Counted from the first letter of the stretch, positions 803 through 28,228 are shown. The stretch: 36,472 nucleotides of DNA from a virus (IMGVR_UViG_2700989508_000025); one strand, 5' to 3'. A program made the numbers and translations. Notes: generated by a model not told the origin, from the sequence alone.

Positions 803-1117
803 GTGGTTGCTGATCATGAATATTTGTATTGGAAGATAATTGCAATGAGCGAAAGAGTGTTTGAGAAAGAACTATATTCTGAATGGGTTATACGCAATAG
901 TCTATATTGGATGACTCCGCTTACTCGATGGAAACTCCATGAAGACGTTTCCCACTGGATAATCTCTTTTGAAAACGATAATCCCAAATTCCTTTATGAA
1001 TTCGATAGGCTGCTTAATGATTACTCTTTGCGAGAAAAGCTACAGCATAAAACAGGGGCGTTGAGAGACTCTATTGTCCATAAAGTGCTTCGCAGTGTTG
1101 ATGAGAGGCTTTCATAA
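803..1117 (+). CDS. Small protein, first gene of the hxs-like operon (HxsD-like candidate)
   Basis: 104-aa ORF whose TAA stop overlaps the ATG of the next gene (1117). No recognisable motif; the assignment is by operon position only. Confidence 0.4.
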   Translation: MVADHEYLYWKIIAMSERVFEKELYSEWVIRNSLYWMTPLTRWKLHEDVSHWIISFENDNPKFLYEFDRLLNDYSLREKLQHKTGALRDSIVHKVLRSVDERLS

Positions 1118-2505
1118 TGGAATTGATGCCATTTAATTTTGACAGATTGCCTAATGGACAGGTGTTTATAAGCAACCTTGCAGGTTTTCATCATTTCATT
1201 GGTGAGCAAGACCTTATTGATCTTTCTGATGAGCGAATTAGTTCGGAGCAATCAAACGTGCTAGAAAGTAAGCTTTTCATAACCAGTGAAAGCTCATCTG
1301 CTATAACTCCCTATGCTTTAAGTTCTGCTTTTGCAAAACGATTGATGAATGAACTGGCTGTCAGGCCAATTTTCATGATTGTACCCACATTACGTTGTGA
1401 CCATACATGCAAGTATTGCCAGGTTAGTAGAGCTTCTGTTAATGCCTCAGGTTACGACCTAAATCCTGAGCTCATCCCCGATATTATTTCGGCTATTAAA
1501 AAACTATCAACGCCACCTTACAAAATAGAGATACAGGGTGGGGAGCCTCTCTTGCGGTTTGATTTAATTCAGAGCATCTATGATCAATGTGCTGAAACGC
1601 TGGGAAGAACCAATTTTGAGATGGTGGTGGCATCAAGTCTGTCCGTCTTGAATGAGGATATGATTGAATGGTCGAGAGACCGGAACATAACGTTCTCTGT
1701 GTCGCTTGATGGTGAGGAAGTTGTTCACAACAGTAATCGAATTCTTGGTCGTGGGCTTGCGTACAGTAGAACAGTGTCAGGGGTAGAGGCTATCAAACAC
1801 TCTTTAGGTGCTGGCCGCGTTGCAACGGTTACTACAGTTACTAAAGAGCTTATCAAACGTCCTGAATCGATTGTTCAGGCTCACTTGTCTCTTGGTCTCA
1901 AGGACATGTTTATCCGACCTGTTAGTCCCTATGGGTTTGCACAAAAAGCTTCTTTCACCTTTTCTATGGACGAATACTTCAGCTTCTATGCCTCGTTGAT
2001 AGATGAAATCCTTAAGATTAATAATGAAGGGATAAGGGTTGTGGAACATTCGGCCTCCATTCATCTGAAAAGGATCTTCAATCCCGGTTTTAGTGGTTAT
2101 GCGGATTTAAAGTCTCCAAGTGGAGTCGTGCTTAACAGTATTCTTTTCAATTATGACGGTCGAGTATATGGTAGCGATGAGAGCCGTATGTTGCAGAAGG
2201 TGAATCCTGAAACGGAGTTCAGTGCGGGTGAAGTTAAGACGCTATCATTTTCTGATAGTCCTTACTATAACGCAGTATTGAGTTCATCGTTCAATTTTGC
2301 TCTGCCAGGTTGTGATACATGTGCATATCAACCATTTTGTGGTTCAGATCCATGCCAGAACATAAGTGTACAGGGTGAGCCTGTCGGTGATAGGAGTCGT
2401 TCAACGTTTTGTCAATATCACAAGGGGATGTTCAGGTATCTGATGAACTGCATCTCAGAGGGTGGTTCGAAGGCTGAGATGCTAAAAGGATGGGCATATG
2501 TCTGA
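1117..2505 (+). CDS. Radical SAM enzyme with C-terminal SPASM-type Cys cluster (HxsB-like maturase candidate)
   Basis: 462 aa. CxxxCxxC motif in LRCDHTCKYCQ, Gly-rich IQGGEPLL, and a C-terminal Cys-rich segment PGCDTCAYQPFCGSDPCQ typical of SPASM domains. Confidence 0.75.
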   Translation: MELMPFNFDRLPNGQVFISNLAGFHHFIGEQDLIDLSDERISSEQSNVLESKLFITSESSSAITPYALSSAFAKRLMNELAVRPIFMIVPTLRCDHTCKYCQVSRASVNASGYDLNPELIPDIISAIKKLSTPPYKIEIQGGEPLLRFDLIQSIYDQCAETLGRTNFEMVVASSLSVLNEDMIEWSRDRNITFSVSLDGEEVVHNSNRILGRGLAYSRTVSGVEAIKHSLGAGRVATVTTVTKELIKRPESIVQAHLSLGLKDMFIRPVSPYGFAQKASFTFSMDEYFSFYASLIDEILKINNEGIRVVEHSASIHLKRIFNPGFSGYADLKSPSGVVLNSILFNYDGRVYGSDESRMLQKVNPETEFSAGEVKTLSFSDSPYYNAVLSSSFNFALPGCDTCAYQPFCGSDPCQNISVQGEPVGDRSRSTFCQYHKGMFRYLMNCISEGGSKAEMLKGWAYV

Positions 2506-3610
2506 GGTTATCAGGAACGATATCTTTCATTTTGCTTCTACAGAGAACGTGCCCACGGGGTTCTATCGGTTATGCAAACAAAAACCAGTGAACCCTTTAT
2601 TCTTTTTGCCCAATTTGCTAGTAGTTGCTGAAGGCAATAATGATGCCATTCCACCATGCTTTGATTTCTCTGTTATTAGCACTGAATTATTTGAGTCAAT
2701 TGAAGATGGAGATATTGGGATAATCAACAATGGCAATATGATACGCGTTATTCTGTCACGCAAAGCCAATCATAATACTGTCTTAGTTACGGAACGCTGC
2801 AATAACTTGTGTCTGTTTTGTTCGCAGCCACCAAAGAAAATAAATGATGACTGGCTACTTACCCAATCAGCTCTTGCTATAGCTTCATTTGGCTTGAACG
2901 GAGTTGTTGGGGTCAGCGGTGGTGAACCTTTGCTATATGGGGATGACTTCCTTCACTTCATTGATTTTATCATCGAGAATTCACCAGATACTGCTTTACA
3001 TGTTTTAACAAACGGACGCAAATTTGCTGATATCAACTTTACACAGGAAATGGCAAAGCGAAGCAAAAAGATCAAAATCACCTTTGGTATCCCGCTCTAC
3101 TCATCAAGACCACTTGTGCATGATCATCTGGTAGGGAGTGATGGCGCATTTAATGAAACGGTTAAAGGGTTAATCAATGCAGGAAACTTGGGGATTAATA
3201 TCGAACTTAGAGTTATTCCTACACTGGCTAACTATACCGAATTGGATGATATTGTAGAATTCGCTGGCCGTGTGTTCTCCAACATCAATCAGATTTCCCT
3301 TATGGGGTTGGAGCCTATCGGTTGGGCACGAAAAAACTGGTCCACCATCTTCATTGATCACAGTAGTTATAGTGAGAAAATAATCTCTGCCATAGACGCT
3401 GCATACAGGTCAGGCATACCTCTGACAATTTTTAATTATCCTTTGTGTTATCTTCCTGAAAGGGCTAGGGAGCTTGCTGTTCAGTCGATCTCTGATTGGA
3501 AAAATTACTATCCAAAAGAATGTGATGAATGTACTCAGAAGCCTTCCTGTGCTGGCTATTTCAGTTCCTCAAAAGGCCGTTTTCATCAATCACCGAGACC
3601 AATTTTATGA
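2498..3610 (+). CDS. Radical SAM enzyme (HxsC-like maturase candidate)
   Basis: 370 aa. CxxxCxxC in TERCNNLCLFCSQ, Gly-rich VSGGEPLL, and C-terminal Cys residues (CDECTQKPSCAGYF). Overlaps the upstream gene by 8 nt and the downstream gene by ATGA. Confidence 0.75.
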   Translation: MSEVIRNDIFHFASTENVPTGFYRLCKQKPVNPLFFLPNLLVVAEGNNDAIPPCFDFSVISTELFESIEDGDIGIINNGNMIRVILSRKANHNTVLVTERCNNLCLFCSQPPKKINDDWLLTQSALAIASFGLNGVVGVSGGEPLLYGDDFLHFIDFIIENSPDTALHVLTNGRKFADINFTQEMAKRSKKIKITFGIPLYSSRPLVHDHLVGSDGAFNETVKGLINAGNLGINIELRVIPTLANYTELDDIVEFAGRVFSNINQISLMGLEPIGWARKNWSTIFIDHSSYSEKIISAIDAAYRSGIPLTIFNYPLCYLPERARELAVQSISDWKNYYPKECDECTQKPSCAGYFSSSKGRFHQSPRPIL

Positions 3611-4242
3611 AAAAGTTTAATTTTGCTGCTCTACTTCCGGGATTTTTGGCTCTCAACAATTCTGTATGGGCAAGCGATTCATCTACAGGAGCGAGTGATT
3701 TACCTGGTATGACTCTTAATGAGCATGATTTAGTGATAGCTCCACTTAACACGGAAGTCCCATTTTATATCGCAGGGCATCGAAGCCATAGCTCTCATAG
3801 GAGCCATAGCTCTCATAGATCCTCATCAGGTGGTGGATACTATGGTGGAAGTACCCCCTATTATCCAAAAACATACAGCTCACCACGTTCATCTGGTTCT
3901 TCAAGTTCAGGTGCAAGTTCCTCATCGTCCTCTTCCTCGGTGCGTGCACTTCGTTCTAACGATAATAATAGAACCACTAACACGAGTTCTGTTGGAACTT
4001 CAGAGGTTAACCGTACGAGTAATGGGCTTGCTTCTGATGCAGAGAAACGTAAGCGATTGATTATGCGAGTTCAGTTCGCATTGCTGGACAGGGGATTTTA
4101 TAACGGAAATATTGACGGCATAATGGGGCCATCCACAAGGCTGTCTGTGAAAAATTACCGCATTGCGAATGGATTACCGATTCCTGCAACTGAAACACTC
4201 GACACTCAATTGTTAAATTCTTTGAATATATTAGCTCGCTAA
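3607..4242 (+). CDS. Secreted His-Xaa-Ser repeat protein with C-terminal peptidoglycan-binding-like domain (HxsA-like precursor candidate)
   Basis: ATG at 3607 overlaps the hxsC-like stop. N-terminal signal-peptide-like MKKFNFAALLPGFLALNNSVWA. Five consecutive H-x-S triplets (HRSHSSHRSHSSHRS), then a Gly/Tyr and Ser-rich low-complexity stretch. The C-terminus (RVQFALLDRGFYNGNIDGIMGPSTRLSVKNYRIANGLPIPATETLD) resembles the PG_binding_1 fold. Confidence 0.7.
   Translation: MKKFNFAALLPGFLALNNSVWASDSSTGASDLPGMTLNEHDLVIAPLNTEVPFYIAGHRSHSSHRSHSSHRSSSGGGYYGGSTPYYPKTYSSPRSSGSSSSGASSSSSSSSVRALRSNDNNRTTNTSSVGTSEVNRTSNGLASDAEKRKRLIMRVQFALLDRGFYNGNIDGIMGPSTRLSVKNYRIANGLPIPATETLDTQLLNSLNILAR
3784..3819 (+). 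repeat. Tandem 18-bp direct repeat (agccatagctctcatag + g, two copies) encoding the His-Xaa-Ser triplets
   Basis: Read directly from the sequence: 3784-3800 and 3802-3818 are identical 17-mers. Confidence 0.8.
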
Positions 4243-4406
4243 ATCTCAGTGAGGTATAAATAAAAAGCAATAAATTATATTAGTCGCGCGTCCATTATTA
4301 GTGGGTAAGATCAAGGACCGTCTGCTCTGTGTTAGGGGCAGATGGTCAGATAAGACTGTGCCGTTTAGCCCGCTAGTACGTGTCTGGACTAATACATTTA
4401 AGAGTC

Positions 4407-5510
4407 TCATTCTGCTATCCATTCCGGGATTTTTGCCTCAAGCTCAAGCTGCGTGGTAAAGCCGCTGTTATCAATGGTGTGCTCGGCTTTCGCAATAATC
4501 CAGTCCTGATTATCAATCTCGCTTTTAAAGCCTGTTACCGTGCCATGCATTTCGGGGTAGAGTTCTGCGCGTCCACGTGCCAGTGTGATGGAGAACGCTG
4601 CGGCTCCGCGTTGTAGCTGCTGCCACTTTGCCGCCGCTGCGCGTCTTGCTGCCTGCTCGTTCTGATAAGTCTTGCGTAACACAAACACATTGCCTTCCGC
4701 GCCTTCCATATAATCACCTTCACGGCTGCTGCTTTTCTCCTTTTTGGGTTTTGGCGGTTTACGGCGTTTCACGCTGACTTTTTTCTTTTTCCCGTAATTA
4801 AGATCAAGCCAGTAGGCGCGTACCCCCGTATACGCCTCGCGGTCAGCAATACGGAACTGATGGCGATCGCCGCTGCTGCGTGTAATGGCGAACGAGGGCA
4901 ACGGCTGGCCCTGTGCGTTCACGCCACCACCTGGCATGATGAATAACAGATTGCCGCTTTTTACTGTGGTGATTGCGCCCAGCATTTCCGCCATGCGCGT
5001 AAGGAAGGACATGTCGCTTTCTTCGGTCTGGTCGGCGTGGTCGATTTCGATATCCATCAGCATTTCGCTGATTTGCGGTTTCAGACCATACCGATGAGCG
5101 ATGGCGGATACCACACGCTCAACGGTCACATCATGCCAGGACACCTCACGTTTAACGTTAAATTCATCCCGAAAATCTGCGCTTCTGGCTGAAACAGTCA
5201 GCCTGTCCGGCGGTCCTTCGTGAGCGATTTCATCAACAATGTAAGTGCCTTTTTCTGTCAGCGGTTCTCCTTTCCAGCCAATGAGAACCGTCAGGCGCGC
5301 GCCCCGTGGCGGTAGCTGCAACTGACCATCCGCATCATCCAGCGTGATGGTGAGCTGGTCCGCTTCAAATCCCCGGTTGTCGGTCAGTGACAGGCTCATC
5401 AGGCGCTCTGCCACGCCTGACAGCGTTTTACCCTCCGCGAGAATATCAAAATCCGGCATTTTCACGGGGTCTGTGCCCTGACTGAGCAATTGCATGGTGG
5501 TGTCGGTCAT
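4407..5510 (-). CDS. D: Tail protein D (late control gene D family)
   Basis: Track ORF 4407..5642 trimmed to the ATG at 5510 (MTDTTMQLL...), which is preceded by GGGAGGG. Similarity to gpD recognised by eye. Carries a Lys/Pro-rich insert (GKKKKVSVKRRKPPKPKKEK). Confidence 0.8.
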   Translation of the reverse strand: MTDTTMQLLSQGTDPVKMPDFDILAEGKTLSGVAERLMSLSLTDNRGFEADQLTITLDDADGQLQLPPRGARLTVLIGWKGEPLTEKGTYIVDEIAHEGPPDRLTVSARSADFRDEFNVKREVSWHDVTVERVVSAIAHRYGLKPQISEMLMDIEIDHADQTEESDMSFLTRMAEMLGAITTVKSGNLLFIMPGGGVNAQGQPLPSFAITRSSGDRHQFRIADREAYTGVRAYWLDLNYGKKKKVSVKRRKPPKPKKEKSSSREGDYMEGAEGNVFVLRKTYQNEQAARRAAAAKWQQLQRGAAAFSITLARGRAELYPEMHGTVTGFKSEIDNQDWIIAKAEHTIDNSGFTTQLELEAKIPEWIAE

Positions 5511-5667
5511 CTGTTCCCTCCCTGTGCGGCATGGTCGCATGTGCGTGCGGAGGGGGTTACTGCTTTTTGTTGTCGCCGTGGCGGGAGAACGGCGCAGGAG
5601 TGAGATTACGCGCGTGGTGGGTGATGATTGTTGCCGAATCATTTAACGGATACAAGGGGCTGAAGCT

Positions 5668-6852
5668 ATGAGTGAAACTCGTTTTCATGGTGCCCGTGTT
5701 ACGGAAAGTACCGACCTGGTAACAGCGATTAATGATGTTGATTCCAGTGTTATCGGTATCGTGGCAACGGCGGATGATGCGGACGCGGAGCTGTTCCCGC
5801 TGAACAAGCCCACACTGCTGACCCGCGTCAATGACGTGCTGGGAAAATGCGGGACAACGGGGACGCTTTATCGTGCGCTTAAGGCCATTGCAGACCAGGT
5901 GAGCACAAAGGTGATCGTCGTTCGCGTGGCTGAACACAAAGAAGAAGACGGAAAGACGCAGGATCAACTGGTTATCGGTGGTTCTGAATCTGACGGCAGC
6001 TATACGGGGATGTATGCGCTGCTTGTTGCAGAGCAGGATGAAAGCATCGGATACCGTCCGCGTATTCTGGCCGCGCCGGAGCTGGATACGGAGGCGGTGA
6101 CAAAATCCCTGTGCGTGATTGCGGGTAAACTGCGCGCGTTTGTGTATGCCTCATGTCATGGCTGTGACACGATGGCTGATGCGATTACCTACCGCCAGAA
6201 ATTCAACGAACGTGAGGTGATGCTCTTATGGCCGGACTTCATCGCCTACAACCCGAAAAGTGGCAAAAACGAAACGTTCCCCGTGCCTGCCTATGCGTGC
6301 GGCCTTCGTGCGTACATTGACCATGAGCAGGGATGGCACAAATCACTCTCCAACGTTCCGGTTAAGAATGTGCTGGGGATGTCGAGGCATGTGTTCTGGT
6401 CGTTGCAGGCCGAAGACAGTGATGCCAACAGCCTCAACAACAAAGAAATCACGACCATTATTCGTCGCAACGGGTTCCGCTTCTGGGGCAACCGCACACC
6501 GGAAACGAACGCCTACATCTTTGAGGTGTATACCCGAACCGCACAGGTGCTGGCTGATTCAATTGCGGAAGCGCAGTTTGAAACCATCGACAGTCCACTG
6601 ACGCCTGCGAACGTGAAAGATGTTATCAGTGCCATCAGGGCAAAACTGGATTCACTGGTTACTGCCGGGAAACTGATTGGGGCGTCGTGCTGGTATGACG
6701 TGGTGGATAACGGCACCACGGATTTACGTCAGGGGCGTGTGCGTATTCGCTACAAATATACGCCCGTTCCGCCACTGGAAGACATGGAGCTTTACCAGAC
6801 GTTTACTGATGAATTCTTTGGTCCCGCATTTGCGGTGCTGGGAGGTGCCTGA
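5668..6852 (+). CDS. FI: Contractile tail sheath protein FI
   Basis: 394 aa, the size of P2 FI (about 396 aa), followed immediately by the tube gene. Sheath-like sequence recognised by eye. Confidence 0.85.
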   Translation: MSETRFHGARVTESTDLVTAINDVDSSVIGIVATADDADAELFPLNKPTLLTRVNDVLGKCGTTGTLYRALKAIADQVSTKVIVVRVAEHKEEDGKTQDQLVIGGSESDGSYTGMYALLVAEQDESIGYRPRILAAPELDTEAVTKSLCVIAGKLRAFVYASCHGCDTMADAITYRQKFNEREVMLLWPDFIAYNPKSGKNETFPVPAYACGLRAYIDHEQGWHKSLSNVPVKNVLGMSRHVFWSLQAEDSDANSLNNKEITTIIRRNGFRFWGNRTPETNAYIFEVYTRTAQVLADSIAEAQFETIDSPLTPANVKDVISAIRAKLDSLVTAGKLIGASCWYDVVDNGTTDLRQGRVRIRYKYTPVPPLEDMELYQTFTDEFFGPAFAVLGGA

Positions 6853-7364
6853 TGGCTGTGCCAAAACATCTTCGCTTTTTTACGCTGTTTGTGGATGGTG
6901 AAAACGAAGTGGGTAAGGTGACGTCCGTCACTCTGCCTAAGCTGACGCGCAAAACCGACAGCTACCGGGGTGGTGGCATGATGGGTGCGGTAAGTATTGA
7001 TCTCGGTCTGGACGACTCCGCGCTTGATGCGAGCTTTGTCATGGGGGGCGCAGTTCGTGAGCTGTTCCTTAAGTATGGCGGCACGATTGACGGCACGCTG
7101 CTGCGTTTTGCGGGTGAATATTACACCGATGCAGAAAGCGACCTGTATGAAGTCGAAATGCGCGGACGTGTGACGGAAATTGATATGGGGGAAGCCAAAC
7201 AGGGCGAAGCCACATCACACACTTACGCCATTAAAAACACCTACTACAAGCTGAGTGTTAACGATCGCCCGTTGTGGGAGATTGACCTGCTGAACTTCAT
7301 TTACCGGAAGGACGGCAAGGACATTGTGCCCGATCGCATCCGTTCCGCGCTCGGGCTTGGCTGA
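6852..7364 (+). CDS. FII: Tail tube protein FII
   Basis: 170 aa, immediately downstream of the sheath gene (ATGA overlap). Size and position match P2 FII. Confidence 0.85.
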   Translation: MAVPKHLRFFTLFVDGENEVGKVTSVTLPKLTRKTDSYRGGGMMGAVSIDLGLDDSALDASFVMGGAVRELFLKYGGTIDGTLLRFAGEYYTDAESDLYEVEMRGRVTEIDMGEAKQGEATSHTYAIKNTYYKLSVNDRPLWEIDLLNFIYRKDGKDIVPDRIRSALGLG

Positions 7365-7418
7365 TAAGTAATATGCAGGCGGCGCAGTGCGTCGCCTCTG
7401 ACTGAAAGGAGTTTCCTG

Positions 7419-7784
7419 ATGAAAGAGACGAAAAACATCGATACCGAAAACACGGTCGTTGCTGACACTGTGAAAGAAACCAGTGAGCGTGGCGTAAAAC
7501 TTACCCAACCAATTGAGCGAGGCGGCGAAAAAATCACGTATGTGGAGATCACCGGAGCTATTGAGCAGGCTGGATCTCTGCGAGATTTGTCGCTGTCTGA
7601 TGTGCTGAATCTGAAAGCGGAATCCATGTTTACGCTGCTGTCACGCGTGACATCACCGCGACTGGATGAAGTGACGATCAAAAAAATGGCATCCCGTGAC
7701 TTTATTCAGTTATGTGTGGTTGCCGTAAATTTTTTGAGCGGTGCGGACTCTGGCGGGAAGAACGAACAGGCGACGGAAGCCTGA
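7419..7784 (+). CDS. E: Tail assembly chaperone E
   Basis: 121 aa, positioned between the tube and tape-measure genes. Contains the T6G slippery site near its 3' end. Confidence 0.75.
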   Translation: MKETKNIDTENTVVADTVKETSERGVKLTQPIERGGEKITYVEITGAIEQAGSLRDLSLSDVLNLKAESMFTLLSRVTSPRLDEVTIKKMASRDFIQLCVVAVNFLSGADSGGKNEQATEA

Positions 7785-7948
7785 TCACGGTTGTGTGCTT
7801 TGAGCACATAGAAGACTTTGTGGCAGATATTGCCGTTATTTTTAACTGGTCGCCCGCCGAAATCTTCATGATGACGCCCGGCGAAGTGGTTAGCTGGCGT
7901 GAGCGGGCGGCACTTCGCAGCGGGAATGCAGACAATGAAGACTCTTGA
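7419..7948 (+). CDS. Tail assembly chaperone E+E' (predicted -1 programmed frameshift product)
   Basis: The E frame (start 7419) and the downstream ORF 7712..7948 are related by a -1 shift. TTTTTTG at 7730-7736 lies in the overlap, as in the P2 E/E' site. Confidence 0.55.
7730..7736 (+). other. Slippery heptamer TTTTTTG (candidate -1 ribosomal frameshift site for E/E')
   Basis: Read directly: T-run 7730-7735, G at 7736, in frame context V-N-F-L of E. Confidence 0.55.
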
Positions 7949-10742
7949 TATCCGGGTCGCTTTCAGCGCCGTTGACAGGCTGACCCGGCCTGCCGAAAAC
8001 GCCCGCCGCCTGATGGGGCAGTTTGGTGACTCCATCCAGCGAACGCAGGGGGCGATCAAAAATCTCGAGCGTCAGGCGCGTTCATTTGAGCGCGCCCGCG
8101 ACGCTGTCAGTAAAGCGGATGCGGGTATCGTGAAAGCACGACGCCAGCTTAACGCCCTTAATCAGTTACAACGCACGGGTACAGTGCTCAGCGAAAAACA
8201 ACAAAAGCTGATGCAGCAGTTAAGCACCCGGCTTGAACGCCTGAATGAATCGCGCACACGGGAAATTCAGAAAATGCGGGAGCTTGGCGGAGAGCTGAAA
8301 CGCCACGGCATTTCCCTGACAGGCAGCGATAACACCATCCAGCAGGCCATCAGACGCACCGAACAGTACAACAACCAGCTTGAACGCGAACGGCAGGCGC
8401 TTGCGCGTGTAACGCGGGCGCGTGAGCGGTATTCGCGCGTGCAGGAAACCGCGGGAAAACTGAAAACAGGTGGTGCGCTGGCAATTGGTGCGGCAGCGGC
8501 TGGCGGCTATGCTGCCGGGCGTTTTTTACAGCCTGCGATCGGGTTCGGCAAAGAGATGTCCCGCGTTCAGGCACTGACGCGAATCGACAAAAACAGCCCG
8601 CAGTTTAAGGCTCTGCGTGAGCAGGCGTTAAAACTTGGCTCTGAAACGCAGTTCACCGCAGGCGATGCCGCCAGTGGGCAGGCATTTCTTGCAATGGCTG
8701 GCTTCACTCCGCAGGCCATTCAGGCTGCGCTTCCGGGCGTGCTGAGCATGGCAACGGCTGGCGGCATGGATCTCGGCGAGACGGCGGATATTGGCTCAAA
8801 TATCCTGACGCAGTTCGGCCTTTCTGCTGACCAGATGGACCGGGTTGGCGACACGCTCACCGCAGCATTTACCCGTACCAACACTGACCTTCGCGCACTG
8901 GGCGAAACCATGAAATATGCAGGTCCGGTGGCGGGCAAGCTGGGAATATCGCTGGAGCAGGCCGCAGCGATGGCGGGCGTGCTGGCGAATATGGGTATCA
9001 GAGGGAGTGATGCCGGGACGGCAATGCGTGCCAGCCTGGCTCGTCTGGCATCACCGCCAAAGGCGGCAGCAGAGGCGCTGAAAGAGCTTGGCGTGTCTGT
9101 CTCGGATGCCGGGGGCAAAATGCGTCCGATGGAGGATGTGCTGGCTGACCTTTATAAAGCTACCCGCAAATACGGGGAAGTTGACCGGGTATCGTTCTTT
9201 AAGGACATTGCCGGAGAAGAGGCTTTCACATCATTTATGGCCCTCGTTGATGCGGCAGGTGACGGCTCCTTACCCAAACTGAGAAAAGAACTTGAAGGTG
9301 CGCGCGGTGAGGCTGAACGCACGGCAAAGGTTATGGCCAACAACCTTGACGGCGATCTGAAATCACTCAGCAGTGCATGGGAAGGGTTGCGCATCCGCAT
9401 TGCAGATCTGATTGACGGTCCGCTGCGTTCTGTCACGCAGTGGCTCACGCGTGTGGTATCAAAGGTGACGGCGCTGGCGCAGGCCCATCCCGCACTGACG
9501 CGCCAGCTACTGATTGCAGGCGGTGCACTGCTGGCAATGACTGCAACGGTTGGCTCGTTGTCGCTGGCTATTGGTGTGCTTGCTGGCCCGCTGGCAAAAC
9601 TGCGTCTTGGTTTTTCCCTCCTGACCGGATCAATGAATGCTGTCAGGGTTCTGCCAGCACTATGGGGAATGGTGACGGGTTCCGTTTCTTTGCTGGGAGG
9701 CGCTATCGGGGCGTTGTTCAGTCCGGTTGGTCTTATCGTGGCTGCGCTTGCCGGAGCTGCCGTTCTTATCTGGAAATACTGGGATCCCATCAGGGCATTT
9801 TTTGCCGGGGTGTTCAGCGGGATTATGGAAAGGCTGACCCCGTTGCGCGAAACCTTTGAACGGTTTAGTCCTGTTTTTGACGCAATCGGGAGTGGGATCA
9901 GCCAGGTGTTTAACTGGTTTAAATCGCTGCTGTCACCGATGGAGTCCAGCAAGGAAACTCTGGATAAATGTACCAGTGCTGGCGAGATATTCGGTAACGT
10001 TCTTGGCGGTGCGTTACAACTTGTTCTGACACCTGCAAAAATGTTGCTGGATACGCTGGCGTGGATACTTGAAAAGCTTGGTGTGCTTCCGGATGAAGCG
10101 GAAAGGGCGCGCAAGAAAATCGAAGACGCACAGCGTGCGGCCATTCTTCAGGACAAGGTTGCCTTGCTTCAGGGGGACCTGGCGAAAATCAATCCGCCGA
10201 AGCCTGTGGAAAATGGCAATGGCACCGGAGGTGATAACCCCAAAGACAATAAACCGCTCACAGACAGCAATACCGGTACGCTGCGCAGACTCAGCAAAAT
10301 TGCTGATAACACAGGTAAGCTGGTTGAGGAGACGAAAAAACGCATTGGCCCCGGCGATATTGTCTTTAAAAACCTGCCCCGGGCACTTGCTGTTCGTGGG
10401 GAGTGGCAGGAGCGGAAGATTGCGCAGGTCAGTAAGCCTGCCCCCGCAATTAATATCACACCCGTGGTCCCGGCTCCGCTGCCTCCGGCGCTGGTCACTG
10501 TTGTTGCGGCCAGCTCCCGCCCGGTGGCGGAGGCTATACGATCTCCAGTGGCATCAGTTCCTGTAACTTCCCGTAACCGGGAGCCTGTTGCCTCCGAATT
10601 TGGTGGTGAAATTCATGTTCATCTGCATAACGTTGTTACGCAGAATCCCCGCGAACTGGCGAAACTGGTCGGTGAAATGGTCAGGGCAGAAATGGAACGG
10701 CGCGCCCGTGCCGGGCGTGGCAGTTTTTACGATAAAGATTGA
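7899..10742 (+). CDS. T: Tail tape measure protein T
   Basis: 947-aa ORF, coiled-coil-rich N-terminus and Gly/Ala-rich hydrophobic segments typical of tape measure proteins. Start is uncertain: alternative ATGs at 7926 and 7935, all overlapping the end of E'. Confidence 0.8.
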   Translation: MSGRHFAAGMQTMKTLDIRVAFSAVDRLTRPAENARRLMGQFGDSIQRTQGAIKNLERQARSFERARDAVSKADAGIVKARRQLNALNQLQRTGTVLSEKQQKLMQQLSTRLERLNESRTREIQKMRELGGELKRHGISLTGSDNTIQQAIRRTEQYNNQLERERQALARVTRARERYSRVQETAGKLKTGGALAIGAAAAGGYAAGRFLQPAIGFGKEMSRVQALTRIDKNSPQFKALREQALKLGSETQFTAGDAASGQAFLAMAGFTPQAIQAALPGVLSMATAGGMDLGETADIGSNILTQFGLSADQMDRVGDTLTAAFTRTNTDLRALGETMKYAGPVAGKLGISLEQAAAMAGVLANMGIRGSDAGTAMRASLARLASPPKAAAEALKELGVSVSDAGGKMRPMEDVLADLYKATRKYGEVDRVSFFKDIAGEEAFTSFMALVDAAGDGSLPKLRKELEGARGEAERTAKVMANNLDGDLKSLSSAWEGLRIRIADLIDGPLRSVTQWLTRVVSKVTALAQAHPALTRQLLIAGGALLAMTATVGSLSLAIGVLAGPLAKLRLGFSLLTGSMNAVRVLPALWGMVTGSVSLLGGAIGALFSPVGLIVAALAGAAVLIWKYWDPIRAFFAGVFSGIMERLTPLRETFERFSPVFDAIGSGISQVFNWFKSLLSPMESSKETLDKCTSAGEIFGNVLGGALQLVLTPAKMLLDTLAWILEKLGVLPDEAERARKKIEDAQRAAILQDKVALLQGDLAKINPPKPVENGNGTGGDNPKDNKPLTDSNTGTLRRLSKIADNTGKLVEETKKRIGPGDIVFKNLPRALAVRGEWQERKIAQVSKPAPAINITPVVPAPLPPALVTVVAASSRPVAEAIRSPVASVPVTSRNREPVASEFGGEIHVHLHNVVTQNPRELAKLVGEMVRAEMERRARAGRGSFYDKD

Positions 10743-10748
10743 GGAGTC

Positions 10749-11243
10749 ATGGCCATGATGATGATCTACGGCATGTTTGTTTTTGAGCTGCGCACGCTGC
10801 CGCATCAGCAGTTACAGCAAAACAAAAGCTGGCGGCATGTGAAAAATGAACGCGTTAACCGTTCAGCAAGCTGGCAGTATATCGGTGCAGGTGATGATCG
10901 CATCGTTCTTTCTGGTGTGCTTTATCCTGAAATTACAGGTGGCGAAGTGTCGCTGTCGCTGCTGACCACGCAGGCGTATACAGGACGACCCTGGCCTTTG
11001 ATTGATGGCGTCGGGCAGATTTACGGCATGTATGTCCTGACCGGAACGAATACGACCCGTTCCGAGTTTGATCGCTACGGTAAGGCGAAAAAGATAGAAT
11101 TTTCACTGACTCTTGAACGCTGTGATGAGGATTTGCGGGAGCGCCTGCAATCCTCATCGTTCAGCGATATGTTGTCCGGCTTCAAAGATAAGGTGACATC
11201 ATCCCTTAATAGCGCGACCAGCTCAGTTAAGGGGCTGCTCTGA
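10749..11243 (+). CDS. U: Tail protein U
   Basis: 164 aa, immediately after T. Resembles P2 gpU by my recollection (N-terminal MMM...FVFEL...SWRH pattern). Confidence 0.8.
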   Translation: MAMMMIYGMFVFELRTLPHQQLQQNKSWRHVKNERVNRSASWQYIGAGDDRIVLSGVLYPEITGGEVSLSLLTTQAYTGRPWPLIDGVGQIYGMYVLTGTNTTRSEFDRYGKAKKIEFSLTLERCDEDLRERLQSSSFSDMLSGFKDKVTSSLNSATSSVKGLL

Positions 11244-11319
11244 TTTAACGTATGTCGCCAATTTCCTGATGAAGGTGACTGGCGACTTGCTGTTGTATGT
11301 CCTTCTCAGAAAATTGTTT

Positions 11320-11348
11320 TTGAATAACAAACAACAGGATTTTATAAT
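11320..11348 (+). promoter_or_regulatory. Near-consensus sigma70-type promoter TTGAAT-17 bp-TATAAT upstream of the acetyltransferase gene
   Basis: Read directly: TTGAAT at 11320-11325, 17-bp spacer, TATAAT at 11343-11348. About 50 bp upstream of the GTG start at 11400. Confidence 0.45.
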
Positions 11349-11399
11349 CTCTTAACCTTATAATATGTGTCGTCTGAAATAATAATTAAGGAGATTATC

Positions 11400-11972
11400 G
11401 TGCTGTCTTACTTAATGGCAATTCACTTTGTTTTATTTGGGAACTCTACTAATTTAAAAAACTTCTGGAAATATGAAGTAATTCGGCGGAAACGTATGGA
11501 TATCTGGAGGCTTTTAAGAGAGAAAAAACAGCGTAACCGGAATTTCCTTTTCTGGTGGCGGTTGGCTAACGAAATGTATATTAATGGTAATAAATTACAT
11601 AAGAAAGCAGCCAAAAAGTTAAACAGTAAAATAATTAACAAATTTGGTTGTGAAATTGGATTGGGCGCAAATATTGGAAAAGGGTTAACAATTCCCCATC
11701 ATGCTGGAATTGTTGTTCATTTTGCTGTTGATGCTGGTGAAAATCTGGTGTTACGACAGAATACGACCATTGGACAGATAGATGGTGACATACCTGGTTC
11801 AAGAGTAAAAATTGGTAGCAACGTTGATATCGGAGCTAATTGTTGCATCATTGGATTATCCCGTAAAATTGGGGATAATGTAAAAATAGGTGCAATGTCT
11901 TTTATAAATAAAGATATACCATCGAACTGCACATATATAACTAAAAAGAGCGGTGCTGTATTGTATAAATAG
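11400..11972 (+). CDS. Hexapeptide-repeat (left-handed beta-helix) acetyltransferase, serine/sugar O-acetyltransferase-like
   Basis: Repeated [LIV]-G-x-x-x-x-I motifs (GANIGKGLTI, KIGSNVDIGANCCIIG, KIGDNVKIGA). Start placed at GTG 11400, preceded by AAGGAG at 11388-11393; the track ORF starts at an earlier GTG (11367). Region is AT-rich by eye. Confidence 0.7.
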   Translation: MLSYLMAIHFVLFGNSTNLKNFWKYEVIRRKRMDIWRLLREKKQRNRNFLFWWRLANEMYINGNKLHKKAAKKLNSKIINKFGCEIGLGANIGKGLTIPHHAGIVVHFAVDAGENLVLRQNTTIGQIDGDIPGSRVKIGSNVDIGANCCIIGLSRKIGDNVKIGAMSFINKDIPSNCTYITKKSGAVLYK

Positions 11973-11980
11973 AGTACATA

Positions 11981-12018
11981 AAGCCATCGATATTTCTATC
12001 GATGGCTTTTTCTTTTTA
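11981..12018. terminator. Hairpin with flanking T-runs between the convergent acetyltransferase and G genes (candidate bidirectional intrinsic terminator)
   Basis: aagccatcgata-tttc-tatcgatggctt followed by tttctttttatt. Read directly. Confidence 0.55.
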
Positions 12019-12594
12019 TTGTGGGGCGACTGGCCACTCAATATCTGCTGCTACTGTTGTATCAACACGATGCAACAATACTCGATATGTCTTCCATGCA
12101 GCCAGTAACGATGTCTCTTCCTCCGTCGCAATATCTAAATCTATAGCATCCTGAAGTGGTGCAATATGCTCACTGGCTACCTGCATCAGGCTGTTTTTTG
12201 TTTCTTCCGCCTCCCTTATCCGAAATAGTTTGTCTGCTTCTGCATCTTTCACCCAGGATGTGCCGTTCCACTTCTGATACTCTTCATACGGCGACAACCA
12301 GGTAACATTTTCCGGTAACGGACCGAGTTCAGAAATAAATAACGAGTCCCCTGATGCCACGTCATAAACCGTTTTACCCCGATGGTCTTCAACGAGATGC
12401 CACGATGCCTCATCACTGTTGAAAACGGCCACGAAGCCAGCCGGAATATCTGGCGGGGCAATATCGGTACTGTTTGCAGGCAGACCTGTATGAGGTGGAA
12501 TGTATGCATCACCTTCACCAATAAACTCATTGGTTCCGGTCAGTAGATTATAAATTTTTATGGTCCGTGATTGTTCACTCATTCTGAATGTCAT
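12016..12594 (-). CDS. G: Tail fibre assembly protein G
   Basis: 192 aa, directly downstream of the tail fibre gene (ATGA overlap at 12592-12596). Position matches P2 G. Confidence 0.7.
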
Positions 12595-14726
12595 TATGCA
12601 AGCCTCACAATATAGTTAAATGCGATGTTTTTTACGGTGTTTTCTGCGTTCCCCGTAGCATTAACGGTGATGGTGTGTCCGTGGGGACCAATAATGACAG
12701 AATGGGCATGAGCACCAATGCCGATAGTGTGGTTATGGGCACCGATATATACATTGTGAGCATGCTCTCCTGCGCTCGACGTGGTACCAGTACCTAACGC
12801 AGCGTTATAACCGGCTGATACACCATTCCCCGCGCCAGTGTGACCAACAGGTATATTGTGTGAATGAGCTCCTGCGCTATTTGTGGTTTTTGTGCCGTAA
12901 TCAAATGAACTGGTCGTTTTAGTACCGTAATCAAACGACGATGTGGTTTTCGTCCCCAAATCCGTACTGGATGCGCTGGCGCTGTGGGTGTGCGATTTTA
13001 TGCCGTCCTGTTCCTGAGACAATACGGCCCGACCACTGGCAGGTTTGCCCTTAATCGTCCAGCCACGCATATCAGGGATCACGCCTGACGGATAAGCGGC
13101 TGCAAGTTTCGGGTATGCAGATTTGTCAAAAGTCTGCCCCTGCATCAGGGCATAACCAGACGGAACGGTATCTGATGGCCACGGGATTGGTGCACCGACT
13201 GGATAAAACTCTGCAGGAGGATGAGCCGAGGTGTAAAGCTGCGCCCACGGCGACCAGTTTGCGTCGATCGTATCCCGTCGTGAACGAATAAATGCCGGAG
13301 CATGAGCACCGCTTGTACCACTCCAGCCGATGAGTAACTCACCTTCGCCAACGGCTGTCATCCCTTTCAGGTGAATGATATTTCCATACGTTGTTGGATA
13401 TCCGTTGTTATACGCCTCGTATAACTCCAGACCTGTGGCCCCCTGCATATTATCTGTCAGGGCGGTCAGCCGACCTTTTGAAGCCAGATTAACTGACGAT
13501 ACTGCTGTCCCATCTGACGGTAACGCCCCGATCTCTGATGCTGTTGGCTTATTCCTGGAGTTATAGTCCCTTCGCCAGCCAGGAGCATAAGCATCACCAT
13601 GATTAATATAAGTAAATTGAGCATTAGGGATGCCTTCACCGCTGGATGTACTCGGTGTGGTAATGCGTATGGTCATTGCGCCGCGGGTGCCAATAACTTC
13701 CACAACAGCACCTGCAAGACAAATATTTCCGCAACCTGTATCTGTAATGACCTTATTACTTGCATAAGCCCATGAGCCTTTGCACATCCAGTAAGGATGG
13801 TTAAATGCCCCCTGACTCTCTAGCCAAAAAATCAACTGCGCAGTTGTCCATGCTTCACTATCTCCACCAATATTCAGCTCTGCACTATATGCACGGCAGG
13901 CACCGATATTTTTCGTAAAGGTGTCTTTGTCAGAGATATCCTCACCATTCTTAGCTTTCTGCAGACGTTTTTCAGCATTGTCATAGGCAGCTTTTACTGC
14001 ATTTGATGTTGCCGCCAGCGTTTCAGATGTACTGTTGGTTGCACTACTAAGCTGGACAAGGCCTTTTCGCGCTGTTGTGGCATCCTGCGCTGTATATTTT
14101 CCGTTAGCAAGATCATACGCGACCTTAACCGCTTTCGGCGTTGCAGCCAGCGTTTCAGAATCGCTGTTAGTGGCGCTACTGAGTTGAACAAAGCCTTTTG
14201 CGGTCAGCGAGGCATCCGGGTGACGTCGTGACTGTTCATGCTCTTTCAGTTTGTTATCCACGTAATCCACTGTGGCCATAACCATGGTGTTATCCACGGT
14301 AAGCGCCACGGTGGCAGTGCTGGATACTGTCAGAATGGTGCGAAATGTTTGTGCACGTCCGGACCCTTCGGCAACGGCTGGCTTGTAACTTTCGGCAGTA
14401 TTGCCCACCGCGATTAAATCGCCGTGCTCATCAAACACACCAATTTCCCGGATCCAGAATCCTCCCGTTTCAGGAGGAATAACCAGCTCCGCAATAATGC
14501 GGTTCTGATGTGTTGCGTCCAGGATGACGCGATTAACAGTATGTCGCCACACCTCATGCACCAGACGGGTCTGCTTACTGTCTGGTGTGGGCAACGTGCC
14601 GCCACCGTCGCCCACGGCCATGTGAGTCAGGCGGACAGGATTACCATCTGGCGCGGCTGCCTGAGCTAATTTTTTGGCACCAGTATCAGTGATAATGGTT
14701 TTAAATTTTCGTGTTGTGGTACTCAT
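12594..14726 (-). CDS. H: Tail fibre protein H
   Basis: 710 aa. Internal roughly 40-aa repeats (LSSATNS.SETLAAT...KAAYD), and a C-terminal tip with [10 protein letters not shown] repeats and His-rich HxH-type repeats ([23 protein letters not shown]), as seen in P2 and T-even fibre tips. Confidence 0.85.
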
Positions 14727-26823: not shown

Positions 26824-26921
26824 GCTTTTTTTCCTTTTTCTCTGTCAATGTGTTGCATTTTGTCCCCCTTGTTTATGTTCCCGGATTAAAGTCATCAGGG
26901 CGGATGCGCCCTGATGTTGTG

Positions 26922-27233
26922 TTATTCGGGAAATAATGCCCGGATATTTCCGGCCATCTGACTGGTTATCTGTGCGGTTGATACTGGCTGTGACGCGGGG
27001 CATTCTGTCCTGGTTTGTGTCACTGATAACGCCTCATCGTCAGCCCATGCAGCCAGTCGGTAAGCCTCTGCTGGATTCATTTTCAGAAGTGCCAGCCCGG
27101 CCAGAAAAGCCACGCGTTGGCCGCTTTTGCGGGCTTCTGGTGTAAGGCTGTCCAGCCAGGCGCATGCTTCGCTTTCGTTCTTGACGGCCGCAGGCTTCAG
27201 ATAGAAACTTATCCGTCTGGTTGGTGTCGTCAT
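26922..27233 (-). CDS. parR: ParR-like centromere-binding adaptor (plasmid partition / StbB-like)
   Basis: Track ORF trimmed to MTTPTRRISFYLKPAAVKNESEACAWLDSL...AFLAGLALLK, which resembles the N-terminal ribbon-helix-helix region of R1 ParR (RRTIAFKLNP...ALTAGLALYR) from memory. Lies immediately downstream of parM. Confidence 0.6.
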   Translation of the reverse strand: MTTPTRRISFYLKPAAVKNESEACAWLDSLTPEARKSGQRVAFLAGLALLKMNPAEAYRLAAWADDEALSVTQTRTECPASQPVSTAQITSQMAGNIRALFPE

Positions 27234-27237
27234 TGGT

Positions 27238-28197
27238 TTACTCCTTGTCCATTGCGTACAGCCCATTAACCAGAGCAAACTGTGGCACCCCGTCCGCGAT
27301 GAAAGTCGCATTAACTCCGCAGGCTTCGCGGATAGCGGGTGCCACAATCTCCGCCCCTCCACCGACAACCATCACCCGCCCGTAACCCGAAAAAACCGCC
27401 AGCGCGCGGATCACGCGTTGTTTCAGTGTTTCTTCCTTTTCACGAATAACCGCCATCAGGCTGGCGTAATGCGCGTCATTGTGGATGTGCTGGCGCAGCC
27501 AGGCTTCATCATGGCGATGTTCGATAATGGTATTGGCGATGTGGTGACTGGTGCGCATACCGTTAGTGGCCATCACCGCCAGTACGGCATCGGCCATCAG
27601 AGAAACGCCTACGTGTGGATCGCAAAACACCTGGCTGATACCTGCCAGGTGCCCCTGAACCTTTGCCACATCCAGCGTGGTTCCGCCCAAATCCACAATC
27701 AGCAGGGATTCAAACGGACTCATGTCAGCCAGTGCCTTAAAGCCAGCCGGAATGGATTCAGGCATAACCCGCACGTTACGGATAGTGAATGCTTCGCCGT
27801 TCTGGTACTCCACCGGGCGCATAACGTTCGCTTTTTTGCGGTTGATGTTGGCCATGTCCGGCTGTGCGTTTGTGTCGAAATACTCGCTCAGTGGCAGGGT
27901 GACAACCACATCCACCTCCTGTGGTGTGATGCCTGATTTGACCAGCGCGTGATGAATGGCAATGACATTCACATCGCTGTATTGGTATTGCGTGTCGGTC
28001 GTCTGGACAAAGCGATCGCTGACCGGATCAAAACCATAGCGCACGCCATCAAGCATGTAGTTCGCGGGCTGCGTGCCACCGAACGGCGCAGACCATTCCG
28101 ACTTGAAGCTGTTCGGGCTGATGGCGTTGCGGCGTTCGCCGTTCTCAGTCCATGCCAGCTTGATGTTGGTGGAGCCGTCGTCGATACAAATTTTCAT
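27238..28197 (-). CDS. parM: ParM/StbA-family actin-like segregation ATPase
   Basis: 319 aa. Strong resemblance to R1 ParM throughout (MKICIDDGSTNIKLAW, SDVNVIAIHHAL, VMPESIPAG, DLGGTTLD, VVGGGAE). SD AAGGAAAAG sits upstream of the ATG at 28197. Confidence 0.85.
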   Translation of the reverse strand: MKICIDDGSTNIKLAWTENGERRNAISPNSFKSEWSAPFGGTQPANYMLDGVRYGFDPVSDRFVQTTDTQYQYSDVNVIAIHHALVKSGITPQEVDVVVTLPLSEYFDTNAQPDMANINRKKANVMRPVEYQNGEAFTIRNVRVMPESIPAGFKALADMSPFESLLIVDLGGTTLDVAKVQGHLAGISQVFCDPHVGVSLMADAVLAVMATNGMRTSHHIANTIIEHRHDEAWLRQHIHNDAHYASLMAVIREKEETLKQRVIRALAVFSGYGRVMVVGGGAEIVAPAIREACGVNATFIADGVPQFALVNGLYAMDKE

Positions 28198-28228
28198 GTC
28201 GCTTTTCCTTATGTTGATTAATTAATCG

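Follow-up and report, generated by a model that had tools for sequence, protein, structure and literature searches.

Two prophage genes provide the nearest described comparisons for the gene considered here. One is neuO of prophage CUS-3, the product of which, NeuO, is a beta-helix polysialic acid O-acetyltransferase that modifies capsule (PMC3046976), with O-acetylation of the K1 capsule by NeuO reported to enhance phage resistance (PMC13001214). The other is neaT, an AT-rich, antisense gene for a PF01757 acyltransferase, as found in a P2-like prophage of strain CFT073, where it fills the moron slot between G and FI (moron position 2); lysogens express neaT, with a resulting change in surface behaviour (PMC3573123). 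The stretch of DNA studied here, i.e., the 36,472 nucleotides of viral sequence IMGVR_UViG_2700989508_000025 (hereafter ‘the window’, with all coordinates numbered over its whole length), is that of a P2-like prophage, and at 11244-12018 it carries an acetyltransferase gene for which NeuO would seem to be the closest functional analogue and neaT the closest positional one. With a probability of roughly one-half, this gene is seen here as encoding an envelope-glycan O-acetyltransferase for lysogenic conversion, that is, as a mobile moron and not as a gene for a serine acetyltransferase.

Mechanistically, a cytoplasmic, acetyl-CoA-dependent O-acetyltransferase would act on a sugar of an envelope glycan, doing so during that glycan's assembly, when it is still attached to its lipid carrier on the membrane's inner face. 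Candidate acceptors would be lipopolysaccharide (LPS) core, enterobacterial common antigen, colanic acid, or some similarly conserved structure, rather than one O-antigen. Acetylation would then change the surface of the lysogen, i.e., would result in lysogenic conversion, and a plausible payoff would be that phages or host immunity recognize the cell differently. The sugar acceptor, expression from the gene's own promoter in the lysogen, and any effect on phage adsorption are elements of this scheme that we infer.

The gene appears in a list of open reading frames (ORFs) as plus strand, 11367-11972, with its true start being the GTG at 11400, resulting in a protein of 190 amino acids (aa). 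The RefSeq start agrees (WP_000954204.1, 190 aa, named ‘serine acetyltransferase’). Minus-strand ORFs within 11244-12018 are of 55-72 aa each and are without any support. GC content is 0.35-0.36 over the gene (0.35 for the coding sequence, with a third-position GC, or GC3, of 0.31) versus 0.50-0.61 in the flanking tail genes. The features of the gene and its immediate surroundings are as follows:

11246-11295, plus strand: hairpin 3' of the gpU stop, with a partly U-rich stretch after it (RNA fold of 11240-11320)
11320-11348, plus strand: putative sigma-70-like promoter, TTGAAT-17-TATAAT (10/12 consensus matches, promoter scan)
11388-11393, plus strand: Shine-Dalgarno sequence AAGGAG, 6 nt 5' of the GTG (read from the sequence)
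11400-11972, plus strand: acetyltransferase, a helical N-domain plus a left-handed beta-helix (PHROG 2154; profiles, alignment, model)
11980-12009, both strands can fold: terminator hairpin with 13-bp stem and 4-nt loop, then TTCTTTTTAT, the feature running to 12019

By family, this protein is a left-handed beta-helix (hexapeptide) acetyltransferase of the CysE/WcaB/EpsC branch. A family profile built from 38 homologues matches, in the Protein Data Bank (PDB), solved CysE structures at 5e-24, and does so over the last helix of the N-domain as well as the beta-helix. An AlphaFold2 (AF2) model of the protein (pLDDT 79.5, pTM 0.80) possesses five helices followed by a beta-helix, and the best Foldseek matches of this model are serine acetyltransferases, at a probability of 1.00. 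An original prediction, made from the sequence alone, had called the product a hexapeptide acetyltransferase of this fold, and profile, model and structural search all agree. For the single sequence, the Pfam Hexapep match is sub-threshold (23.6 versus a gathering score of 27), and the best NCBIfam matches, to EpsC (74 bits), cysE (61) and WcaB (53), all fall far under cut-offs of 150-211. The WcaB model proper, TIGR04016, is matched at 52.4 bits versus its cut-off of 194.65, with the gene furthermore found in a prophage and outside of a wca cluster. There is a match to PHROG 2154 at 2.1e-86 (residues 13-190 on profile positions 3-181 of 185), membership in which adds no mechanism because PHROG 2154 is without an assigned function. 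Pfam returned no match to PF01757 (Acyl_transf_3, the multi-pass membrane domain of the Oac/GtrC/NeaT kind of O-acetyltransferase), the model being instead that of a soluble helical plus beta-helix fold. Of individual residues, in an alignment that includes CysE and WcaB of E. coli, H100 aligns with the catalytic His158 of CysE and is at least 90% conserved in the family, and E84 aligns with that histidine's partner, Asp143, with D or E present in the aligned rows shown.

As ‘serine acetyltransferase’ is the name used for this gene in RefSeq and in phage records, the name should be considered literally as well. A true serine O-acetyltransferase would be an auxiliary metabolic gene, one which, in the lysogen or as infection proceeds, raises the production of cysteine, and consistent with this are the CysE identity of the closest solved structures and of several NCBIfam matches, along with conservation of the catalytic His/acid pair. 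The idea nonetheless is highly improbable. CysE models are matched well below their cut-offs, i.e., at 61 bits versus 210.65 for TIGR01172 and 36 bits versus 397 for NF008349. No Pfam SATase_N match was found in the protein, which at 190 aa, versus 273 for CysE, has a shorter N-domain. Arg192 and His193 of CysE (E. coli numbering) bind the amino-acid substrate, serine, and the columns aligned to them are not conserved, varying across the family as R/H/C/Y/V/P/I/Q/A and as V/I, with this region of the hidden Markov model (HMM) alignment to 6wye reading ‘ekv’ here versus ‘drh’. The CysE C-terminal extension, ending in Ile, has a role in CysK binding; the present protein ends in ...SGAVLYK, and the extension, ending in ...GDGI, is without a counterpart in any family member. 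Lastly, when the family profile is compared using hhalign, WcaB scores 142 (35% identity) versus 114 for CysE (27%). Because the cysE cut-off, SATase_N, Arg192/His193 and the C-terminal tail all fail, and because WcaB scores higher, this would not be a housekeeping serine acetyltransferase. HMM classification, proposed originally as a check on just this point, thus does not return that enzyme, with EpsC, cysE and WcaB all sub-cut-off. The RefSeq name, that is, appears to be a family-level label which, going by the sequence, is misleading and unsupported.

The gene is under purifying selection and is selectively maintained. Pairwise Nei-Gojobori dN/dS versus six variants is 0.12-0.20, and all 12 of the 12 compared copies are intact as well as AT-rich (GC of 0.32-0.39). 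ORFs remain intact, indeed, in divergent copies down to approximately 57% identity, and 16 columns are invariant in the alignment of 38 sequences.

What points towards glycans as substrates is found particularly among relatives of the gene, which are among the loci compared here (IMG/VR phage contigs, chromosomes and plasmids, distinguished where necessary by L-numbers). A Leminorella relative (47% identity) sits in an LPS-core locus, with the order GT4 - GT8 - WaaY - DUF115-like - acetyltransferase - WaaL, a Pseudomonas relative is bordered by a GT2 glycosyltransferase and a UDP-glucose dehydrogenase, and GT2 genes are found near many relatives of 30-40% identity. In phage loci L149 and L150, an HtrL_YibB gene (PF09612, ~1e-77) lies between the acetyltransferase homologue and the fibre genes, convergent with the former, and the htrL of K-12 is located at the waa locus. 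These genes are found at:

L149:1591-2445: HtrL_YibB gene (PF09612)
L150:3753-4610: HtrL_YibB gene (PF09612)

Separately, a DUF115/MptE-like gene (~260 aa, with a weak Pfam match) is seen immediately 5' of the acetyltransferase homologue in both Leminorella and Halomonas, suggesting that the two form a two-gene module:

L005:7132-7908: DUF115/MptE-like gene
L013:7013-7798: DUF115/MptE-like gene, with these two 36-37% identical to each other

Regarding which glycan, carriers of the gene include strains labelled O157:H7, O103 and O55:H7, plus 55989. Since the gene spans many O-serotypes, a conserved glycan would be a more economical guess than would one O-antigen. An O-antigen or exopolysaccharide target had been suggested originally, and of this the envelope-glycan portion is retained, given that the nearest non-mobile relatives point that way, while the diversity of serotypes argues against a serotype-specific O-antigen.

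The family is widespread as well as mobile. A large protein search yielded 336 protein clusters at E <= 1e-5, nearly all of ~190 aa and from Enterobacterales, the others including some from Orbaceae and Pseudomonas. Close DNA copies are present in 530 of 5426 complete Escherichia coli genomes, with 534 of the places being chromosomal and 66 being on plasmids. Relatives of 50-56% identity are found on enterobacterial plasmids (437 plasmid records, of which 251 are conjugative), with the two plasmid copies that were inspected adjoining a replicon, a toxin-antitoxin pair and a ProQ/FinO gene, and with one plasmid copy following the bfp operon on an EAF-type plasmid. Other copies occur at a prophage edge beside hok or, in Buttiauxella, are convergent with the tail gene that ends a tail cluster. 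The plasmid homologues are:

L179:2575-3165: plasmid homologue, 50-56% identity
L180:6983-7570: plasmid homologue, 50-56% identity
L169:6001-6594: plasmid homologue, 50-56% identity

Within IMG/VR phage contigs, the acetyltransferase gene is nearly always found immediately downstream of, and convergent with, the tail-fibre assembly chaperone gene, tfa. This arrangement is seen across backbones, that is, in inverted-operon P2-like phages, canonical P2-like phages, P1-like phage-plasmids, Citrobacter phiNP and others. In the P1-like phage-plasmids the gene is in the centre of the invertible C-segment, between two alternative chaperone genes, and in phiNP the order is dinI - hicAB - sat, convergent with tfa. 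The exception is a group, L155-160, in which the acetyltransferase gene is co-directional. Exchange between backbones can involve more than the one gene: Using blastn of the window against L002, L003 and L137, a 1.8-kb block was found, 11408-13207, comprising acetyltransferase, terminator, tfa and fibre tip, which has 93% nucleotide identity to P1-like JL22 and Ro157c2YLVW. In L133, L140 and L142, by comparison, homology starts at 11316-11318, exactly at the -35 hexamer. Strict co-variation of acetyltransferase and fibre-tip alleles was considered and rejected, as acetyltransferase alleles of 97-99% identity pair with fibre tips of 81-95% identity.

The reverse association, of tfa with the acetyltransferase gene, is much looser. 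A gene-plus-tfa query is matched by 4379 of the 5426 genomes, with both parts found in only 528. The tfa-only matches listed have 88-89% identity, and their alignments start 5-14 nt beyond the tfa stop codon. As tfa mostly is found without it, the acetyltransferase gene therefore is an optional cassette and is not needed for making the fibre. Together with its low GC, its promoter-like site and its terminator, this absence beside tfa-only matches fits well with the suggestion, made originally, of an AT-rich and self-contained accessory gene, i.e., of a moron.

Two further genes are associated with these fibre loci. In close relatives, a Macro-domain gene (~240-300 aa, Pfam Macro at ~1e-19), absent from the window, is found between a tail-fibre gene and tfa, and near-identical acetyltransferase alleles occur both with and without this extra gene. 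In divergent phage loci, a small ORF of 77-90 aa is found directly 5' of, and co-directional with, the acetyltransferase gene; for those of L149, L150, L151, L161 and L163, Pfam gave no match, and the window contains no equivalent. The locations of both are:

L099:9204-10106: Macro-domain gene (Pfam Macro)
L124:9204-10094: Macro-domain gene (Pfam Macro)
L111:7311-8039: Macro-domain gene (Pfam Macro)
L142:6723-7532: Macro-domain gene (Pfam Macro)
L149:613-882: small upstream ORF
L150:2775-3044: small upstream ORF
L151:1942-2208: small upstream ORF
L163:7639-7911: small upstream ORF
L161:886-1119: small upstream ORF

The acetyltransferase is predicted to be expressed from its own promoter in the lysogen, apart from the late genes. 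The hexamers of that putative promoter are at 11320-11325 (TTGAAT) and 11343-11348 (TATAAT), with a further TATAAT at 11359-11364. Both the consensus Shine-Dalgarno sequence and the downstream hairpin terminator of the original prediction are indeed present. The former, at 6 nt before GTG 11400, is also found in L133, L140, L142 and L143. The latter, with its 13-bp stem and T-run, folds at -18.8 kcal/mol on the plus strand (z = -5.2) and at -19.5 kcal/mol on the minus strand (z = -7.7); its stem is bordered by A's and T's, and the T-run extends over the stop codon (12016-12018) of tfa, with which the acetyltransferase gene converges. As this hairpin folds on either strand, and given that overlap with the tfa stop, 11980-12019 looks like a bidirectional terminator shared by two convergent genes. 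On the upstream side, the fold of 11240-11320 is at -22.3 kcal/mol (z = -3.46), with no shuffle folding equally well, and the hairpin at 11246-11295 may end the FI-U operon, possibly insulating the cargo gene from late read-through. Of P2 late-promoter dyads (TGT-N12-ACA), there are 3 in the window versus 8.4 expected, with none near the acetyltransferase gene or FI. A scan of 10500-12700 against Rfam found nothing in the acetyltransferase gene or its flanks, the sole match being IS009, inside tfa. That match (RF02111; 12053-12251, minus strand, 173 bits) is within the 3' part of the tfa coding sequence, and it looks as though the IS009 model was built on a prophage tfa fragment, rather than the match being evidence of an sRNA in the window.

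The window is 100% identical, over the query, to a locus of E. coli PV0838, where the prophage adjoins ihfA. Its gene order, with strands in parentheses, is ogr(-) hxsDBCA(+) D(-) FI FII E E' T U(+) acetyltransferase(+) G H I J W V(-), such that the acetyltransferase gene sits between gpU and gpG/tfa, where the 3' ends of both operons converge. Its neighbours are:

10749-11243, plus strand: gpU tail protein gene, the last of the inverted FI-FII-E-E'-T-U operon (Pfam Phage_P2_GpU, 1.5e-38; RefSeq ‘phage tail protein’)
12016-12594, minus strand: tail-fibre assembly chaperone gene gpG/Tfa, the convergent right neighbour (Pfam Caudo_TAP, 3.2e-39; RefSeq)
12594-13207, minus strand: C-terminal tip of tail fibre gpH (Pfam on gpH; blastn)

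Relative to P2, the FI-FII-E-E'-T-U operon (5668-11243, plus strand) is inverted, with D (4407-5642) as well as ogr remaining on the minus strand. This inverted sheath-to-U order is seen also in dozens of IMG/VR contigs (L084-L125), and because these share the order it is not an artefact. A search of 3500-12700 for inverted repeats that might bound the FI-U segment produced only short, chance-level pairs, such that no mechanism of inversion came to light. In canonical-order P2-like relatives (L145-148, L159) the order is instead FI(-) acetyltransferase(+) tfa(-) H(-), with a copy that is 65% identical and which occupies the true G/FI (Z/fun) slot, antisense. Placement of the gene at the Z/fun position, as had been proposed, consequently is only partly apt: The gene is beside tail-fibre genes, and in these relatives is in the slot itself, but in the window its other flank is gpU rather than FI.

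Elsewhere in the window, the 411-aa D ORF begins 25 bp from the FI start codon, with RefSeq instead annotating a 264-aa D protein plus a pseudogene fragment. A second cargo block, at ~845-4242 and thereby between ogr and D, consists of a His-Xaa-Ser system, hxsD-hxsB-hxsC-hxsA, i.e., two radical-SAM maturases and a repeat protein, with the radical-SAM proteins weakly matching PADLOC viperin models. RefSeq annotation of the identical PV0838 locus also includes a hok/gef toxin gene at the left end of the window (~1-141) and, in the early region, plasmid-type partition genes (ParM-like plus a stability gene, ~26900-28200).

A number of observations count against envelope-glycan acetylation in a lysogen, and these should be kept in view. 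The beta-helix part of the AF2 model has only moderate confidence (pLDDT 60-75). The Erwinia relative has Crp-like and Usp neighbours, and a copy in Orbus is alone in the chromosome; the plasmid neighbours, i.e., replicon, toxin-antitoxin and ProQ/FinO, say nothing of glycans; and the phage of the window is without a partner glycosyltransferase or flippase. Linkage to fibre genes may simply mean that this is a favoured insertion site. As to a strong promoter, which had been claimed from the outset, TTGAAT-17-TATAAT does exist and matches consensus at 10 of 12 positions, but promoter-like matches in this AT-rich stretch number 6 versus 5.3 +/- 2.7 in shuffles, that is, there is no enrichment. 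Nor are the exact hexamers kept across backbones: Only the nearest P2-like relative, L143, has them, with L133, L140 and L142 showing the degraded versions TTAAAT/TTACAC and with P1-like phages having other sequences instead.

What else might this gene be doing? That it does nothing, being a neutral or decaying hitch-hiker without current function, is a notion to which its AT-rich, un-ameliorated composition and its variable promoter lend some colour. It is very hard to credit, however, given dN/dS of 0.12-0.20, ORFs intact down to ~57% identity, the 16 invariant columns, and a catalytic His that is conserved at 90% or more. A role in the virion, whether through acetylation of tail fibre or chaperone or through being otherwise needed for making the fibre, might be read from the gene's directly adjoining tfa in at least four backbones and its exchange, along with tfa and fibre tip, as a block. 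That role is barely conceivable: tfa genes of 88-89% identity go without the acetyltransferase gene, which accompanies tfa in only 528 of 4379 matching genomes; the gene usually runs opposite to the late operon and comes with a promoter-like site and a terminator of its own; and there are plasmid and chromosomal homologues without fibres nearby. Unlikely, though worth carrying along, is a target that is not a glycan at all (small molecule, signalling nucleotide, toxin or antibiotic, or protein), with the enzyme then serving mobile elements generally as a factor in defence, anti-defence or establishment. The family's presence on phages and on several hundred plasmids, 251 of the 437 records being conjugative, would be in keeping with such a factor, as would the replicon, toxin-antitoxin and ProQ/FinO genes beside the two inspected plasmid copies, the dinI and hicAB cargo beside the phiNP copy, and the Macro-domain gene in the same fibre locus of some close relatives. 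Arguing otherwise, PADLOC v2 defence models gave 0 families at E <= 0.01 for the acetyltransferase, chloramphenicol and streptogramin acetyltransferase models are absent from the 20 NCBIfam matches, those chromosomal relatives which have informative neighbours are in LPS or glycan loci, and nothing ties the acetyltransferase functionally to its neighbours.

Lysogenic conversion through an envelope-glycan O-acetyltransferase remains the favoured reading, and modification of the receptor, as suggested originally, is plausible and by now somewhat better motivated. A more specific version, distinctly unlikely, would have the protein be a mobile ‘receptor-editing’ enzyme, one which acetylates a conserved envelope glycan (e.g., LPS core), with phages and plasmids thereby sharing an exclusion strategy built on a soluble beta-helix enzyme. 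In phages the gene would then travel along with cassettes encoding fibre tip and chaperone, and in plasmids it would sit next to the replicon, its use being to shut out competitors that depend on this receptor or instead to prevent futile re-adsorption. LPS core is the structure that P1/P2/Mu-type tail fibres read, as do PilV adhesins, which are those of conjugative plasmids of IncI type.

The literature searched contains no functional study of this acetyltransferase family, which is mentioned only as unexplained cargo. The gene's role is called unknown in PMC9603915, the gene is listed as ‘fitness’ in PMC6456863, and it is not covered in the RNA-seq review PMC7067206. Yet approximately 1 in 10 complete E. 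coli genomes carries this gene, almost everywhere under the name ‘serine acetyltransferase’, a name that is unsupported. Were it true that a conserved envelope glycan is acetylated, the gene would account for surface variation that is both widespread and overlooked, and which could affect phage adsorption, and hence phage therapy and typing, and possibly also conjugation and immune recognition. Should the glycan reading be false, a cargo gene that is common among prophages would still have had its annotation corrected.

Returning to known systems, the original assertion goes too far in saying that O-antigen conversion by phages ‘commonly’ employs beta-helix acetyltransferases adjacent to tail-fibre genes. 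It was by their relatedness to a PF01757 membrane acyltransferase that the O-acetyltransferase homologues of Sf6 and phiV10, as well as NeaT, were retrieved (PMC3573123), with NeuO providing the clear beta-helix precedent. NeuO, as a functional analogue, differs from the present protein in not being found in the best 60 of 99 PDB sequence matches of the family profile. It differs also in that neuO is phase-variable via tandem repeats, whereas Tandem Repeats Finder (TRF) found none in 11200-12050, and in having an acceptor that is specific to K1 strains. With neaT, the likeness is instead one of position, with L145-148 and L159 carrying the present family in the same slot and in the same orientation. 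NeaT, however, as a PF01757 membrane acyltransferase, is of an unrelated fold, and in the window the other flank of the slot is gpU because the FI-U operon is inverted.

CysE (TIGR01172; PDB 1t3d, 6wye) provides the best solved relatives, sharing the helical N-domain that is followed by a beta-helix, along with retention of the His and its acidic partner. The phage protein nevertheless, as noted, is the smaller of the two, lacking both the SATase_N match and the C-terminal extension. Greater likeness is seen with WcaB, the colanic acid O-acetyltransferase (TIGR04016/NF007564), which too is a small, CysE-like beta-helix enzyme, with HH and R(Q/H)xxTIG motifs, and which aligns with an hhalign probability of 99.5% and 35% identity over 104 columns. 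The two differ in their N-terminal helical regions, that of the phage protein being longer, and in location, the acetyltransferase considered here being found on phages and plasmids rather than in the wca cluster. Going by product names, the acceptor of WcaB would be a sugar in the undecaprenyl-pyrophosphate (Und-PP)-linked repeat unit of colanic acid, i.e., chemistry of the kind that is proposed here.

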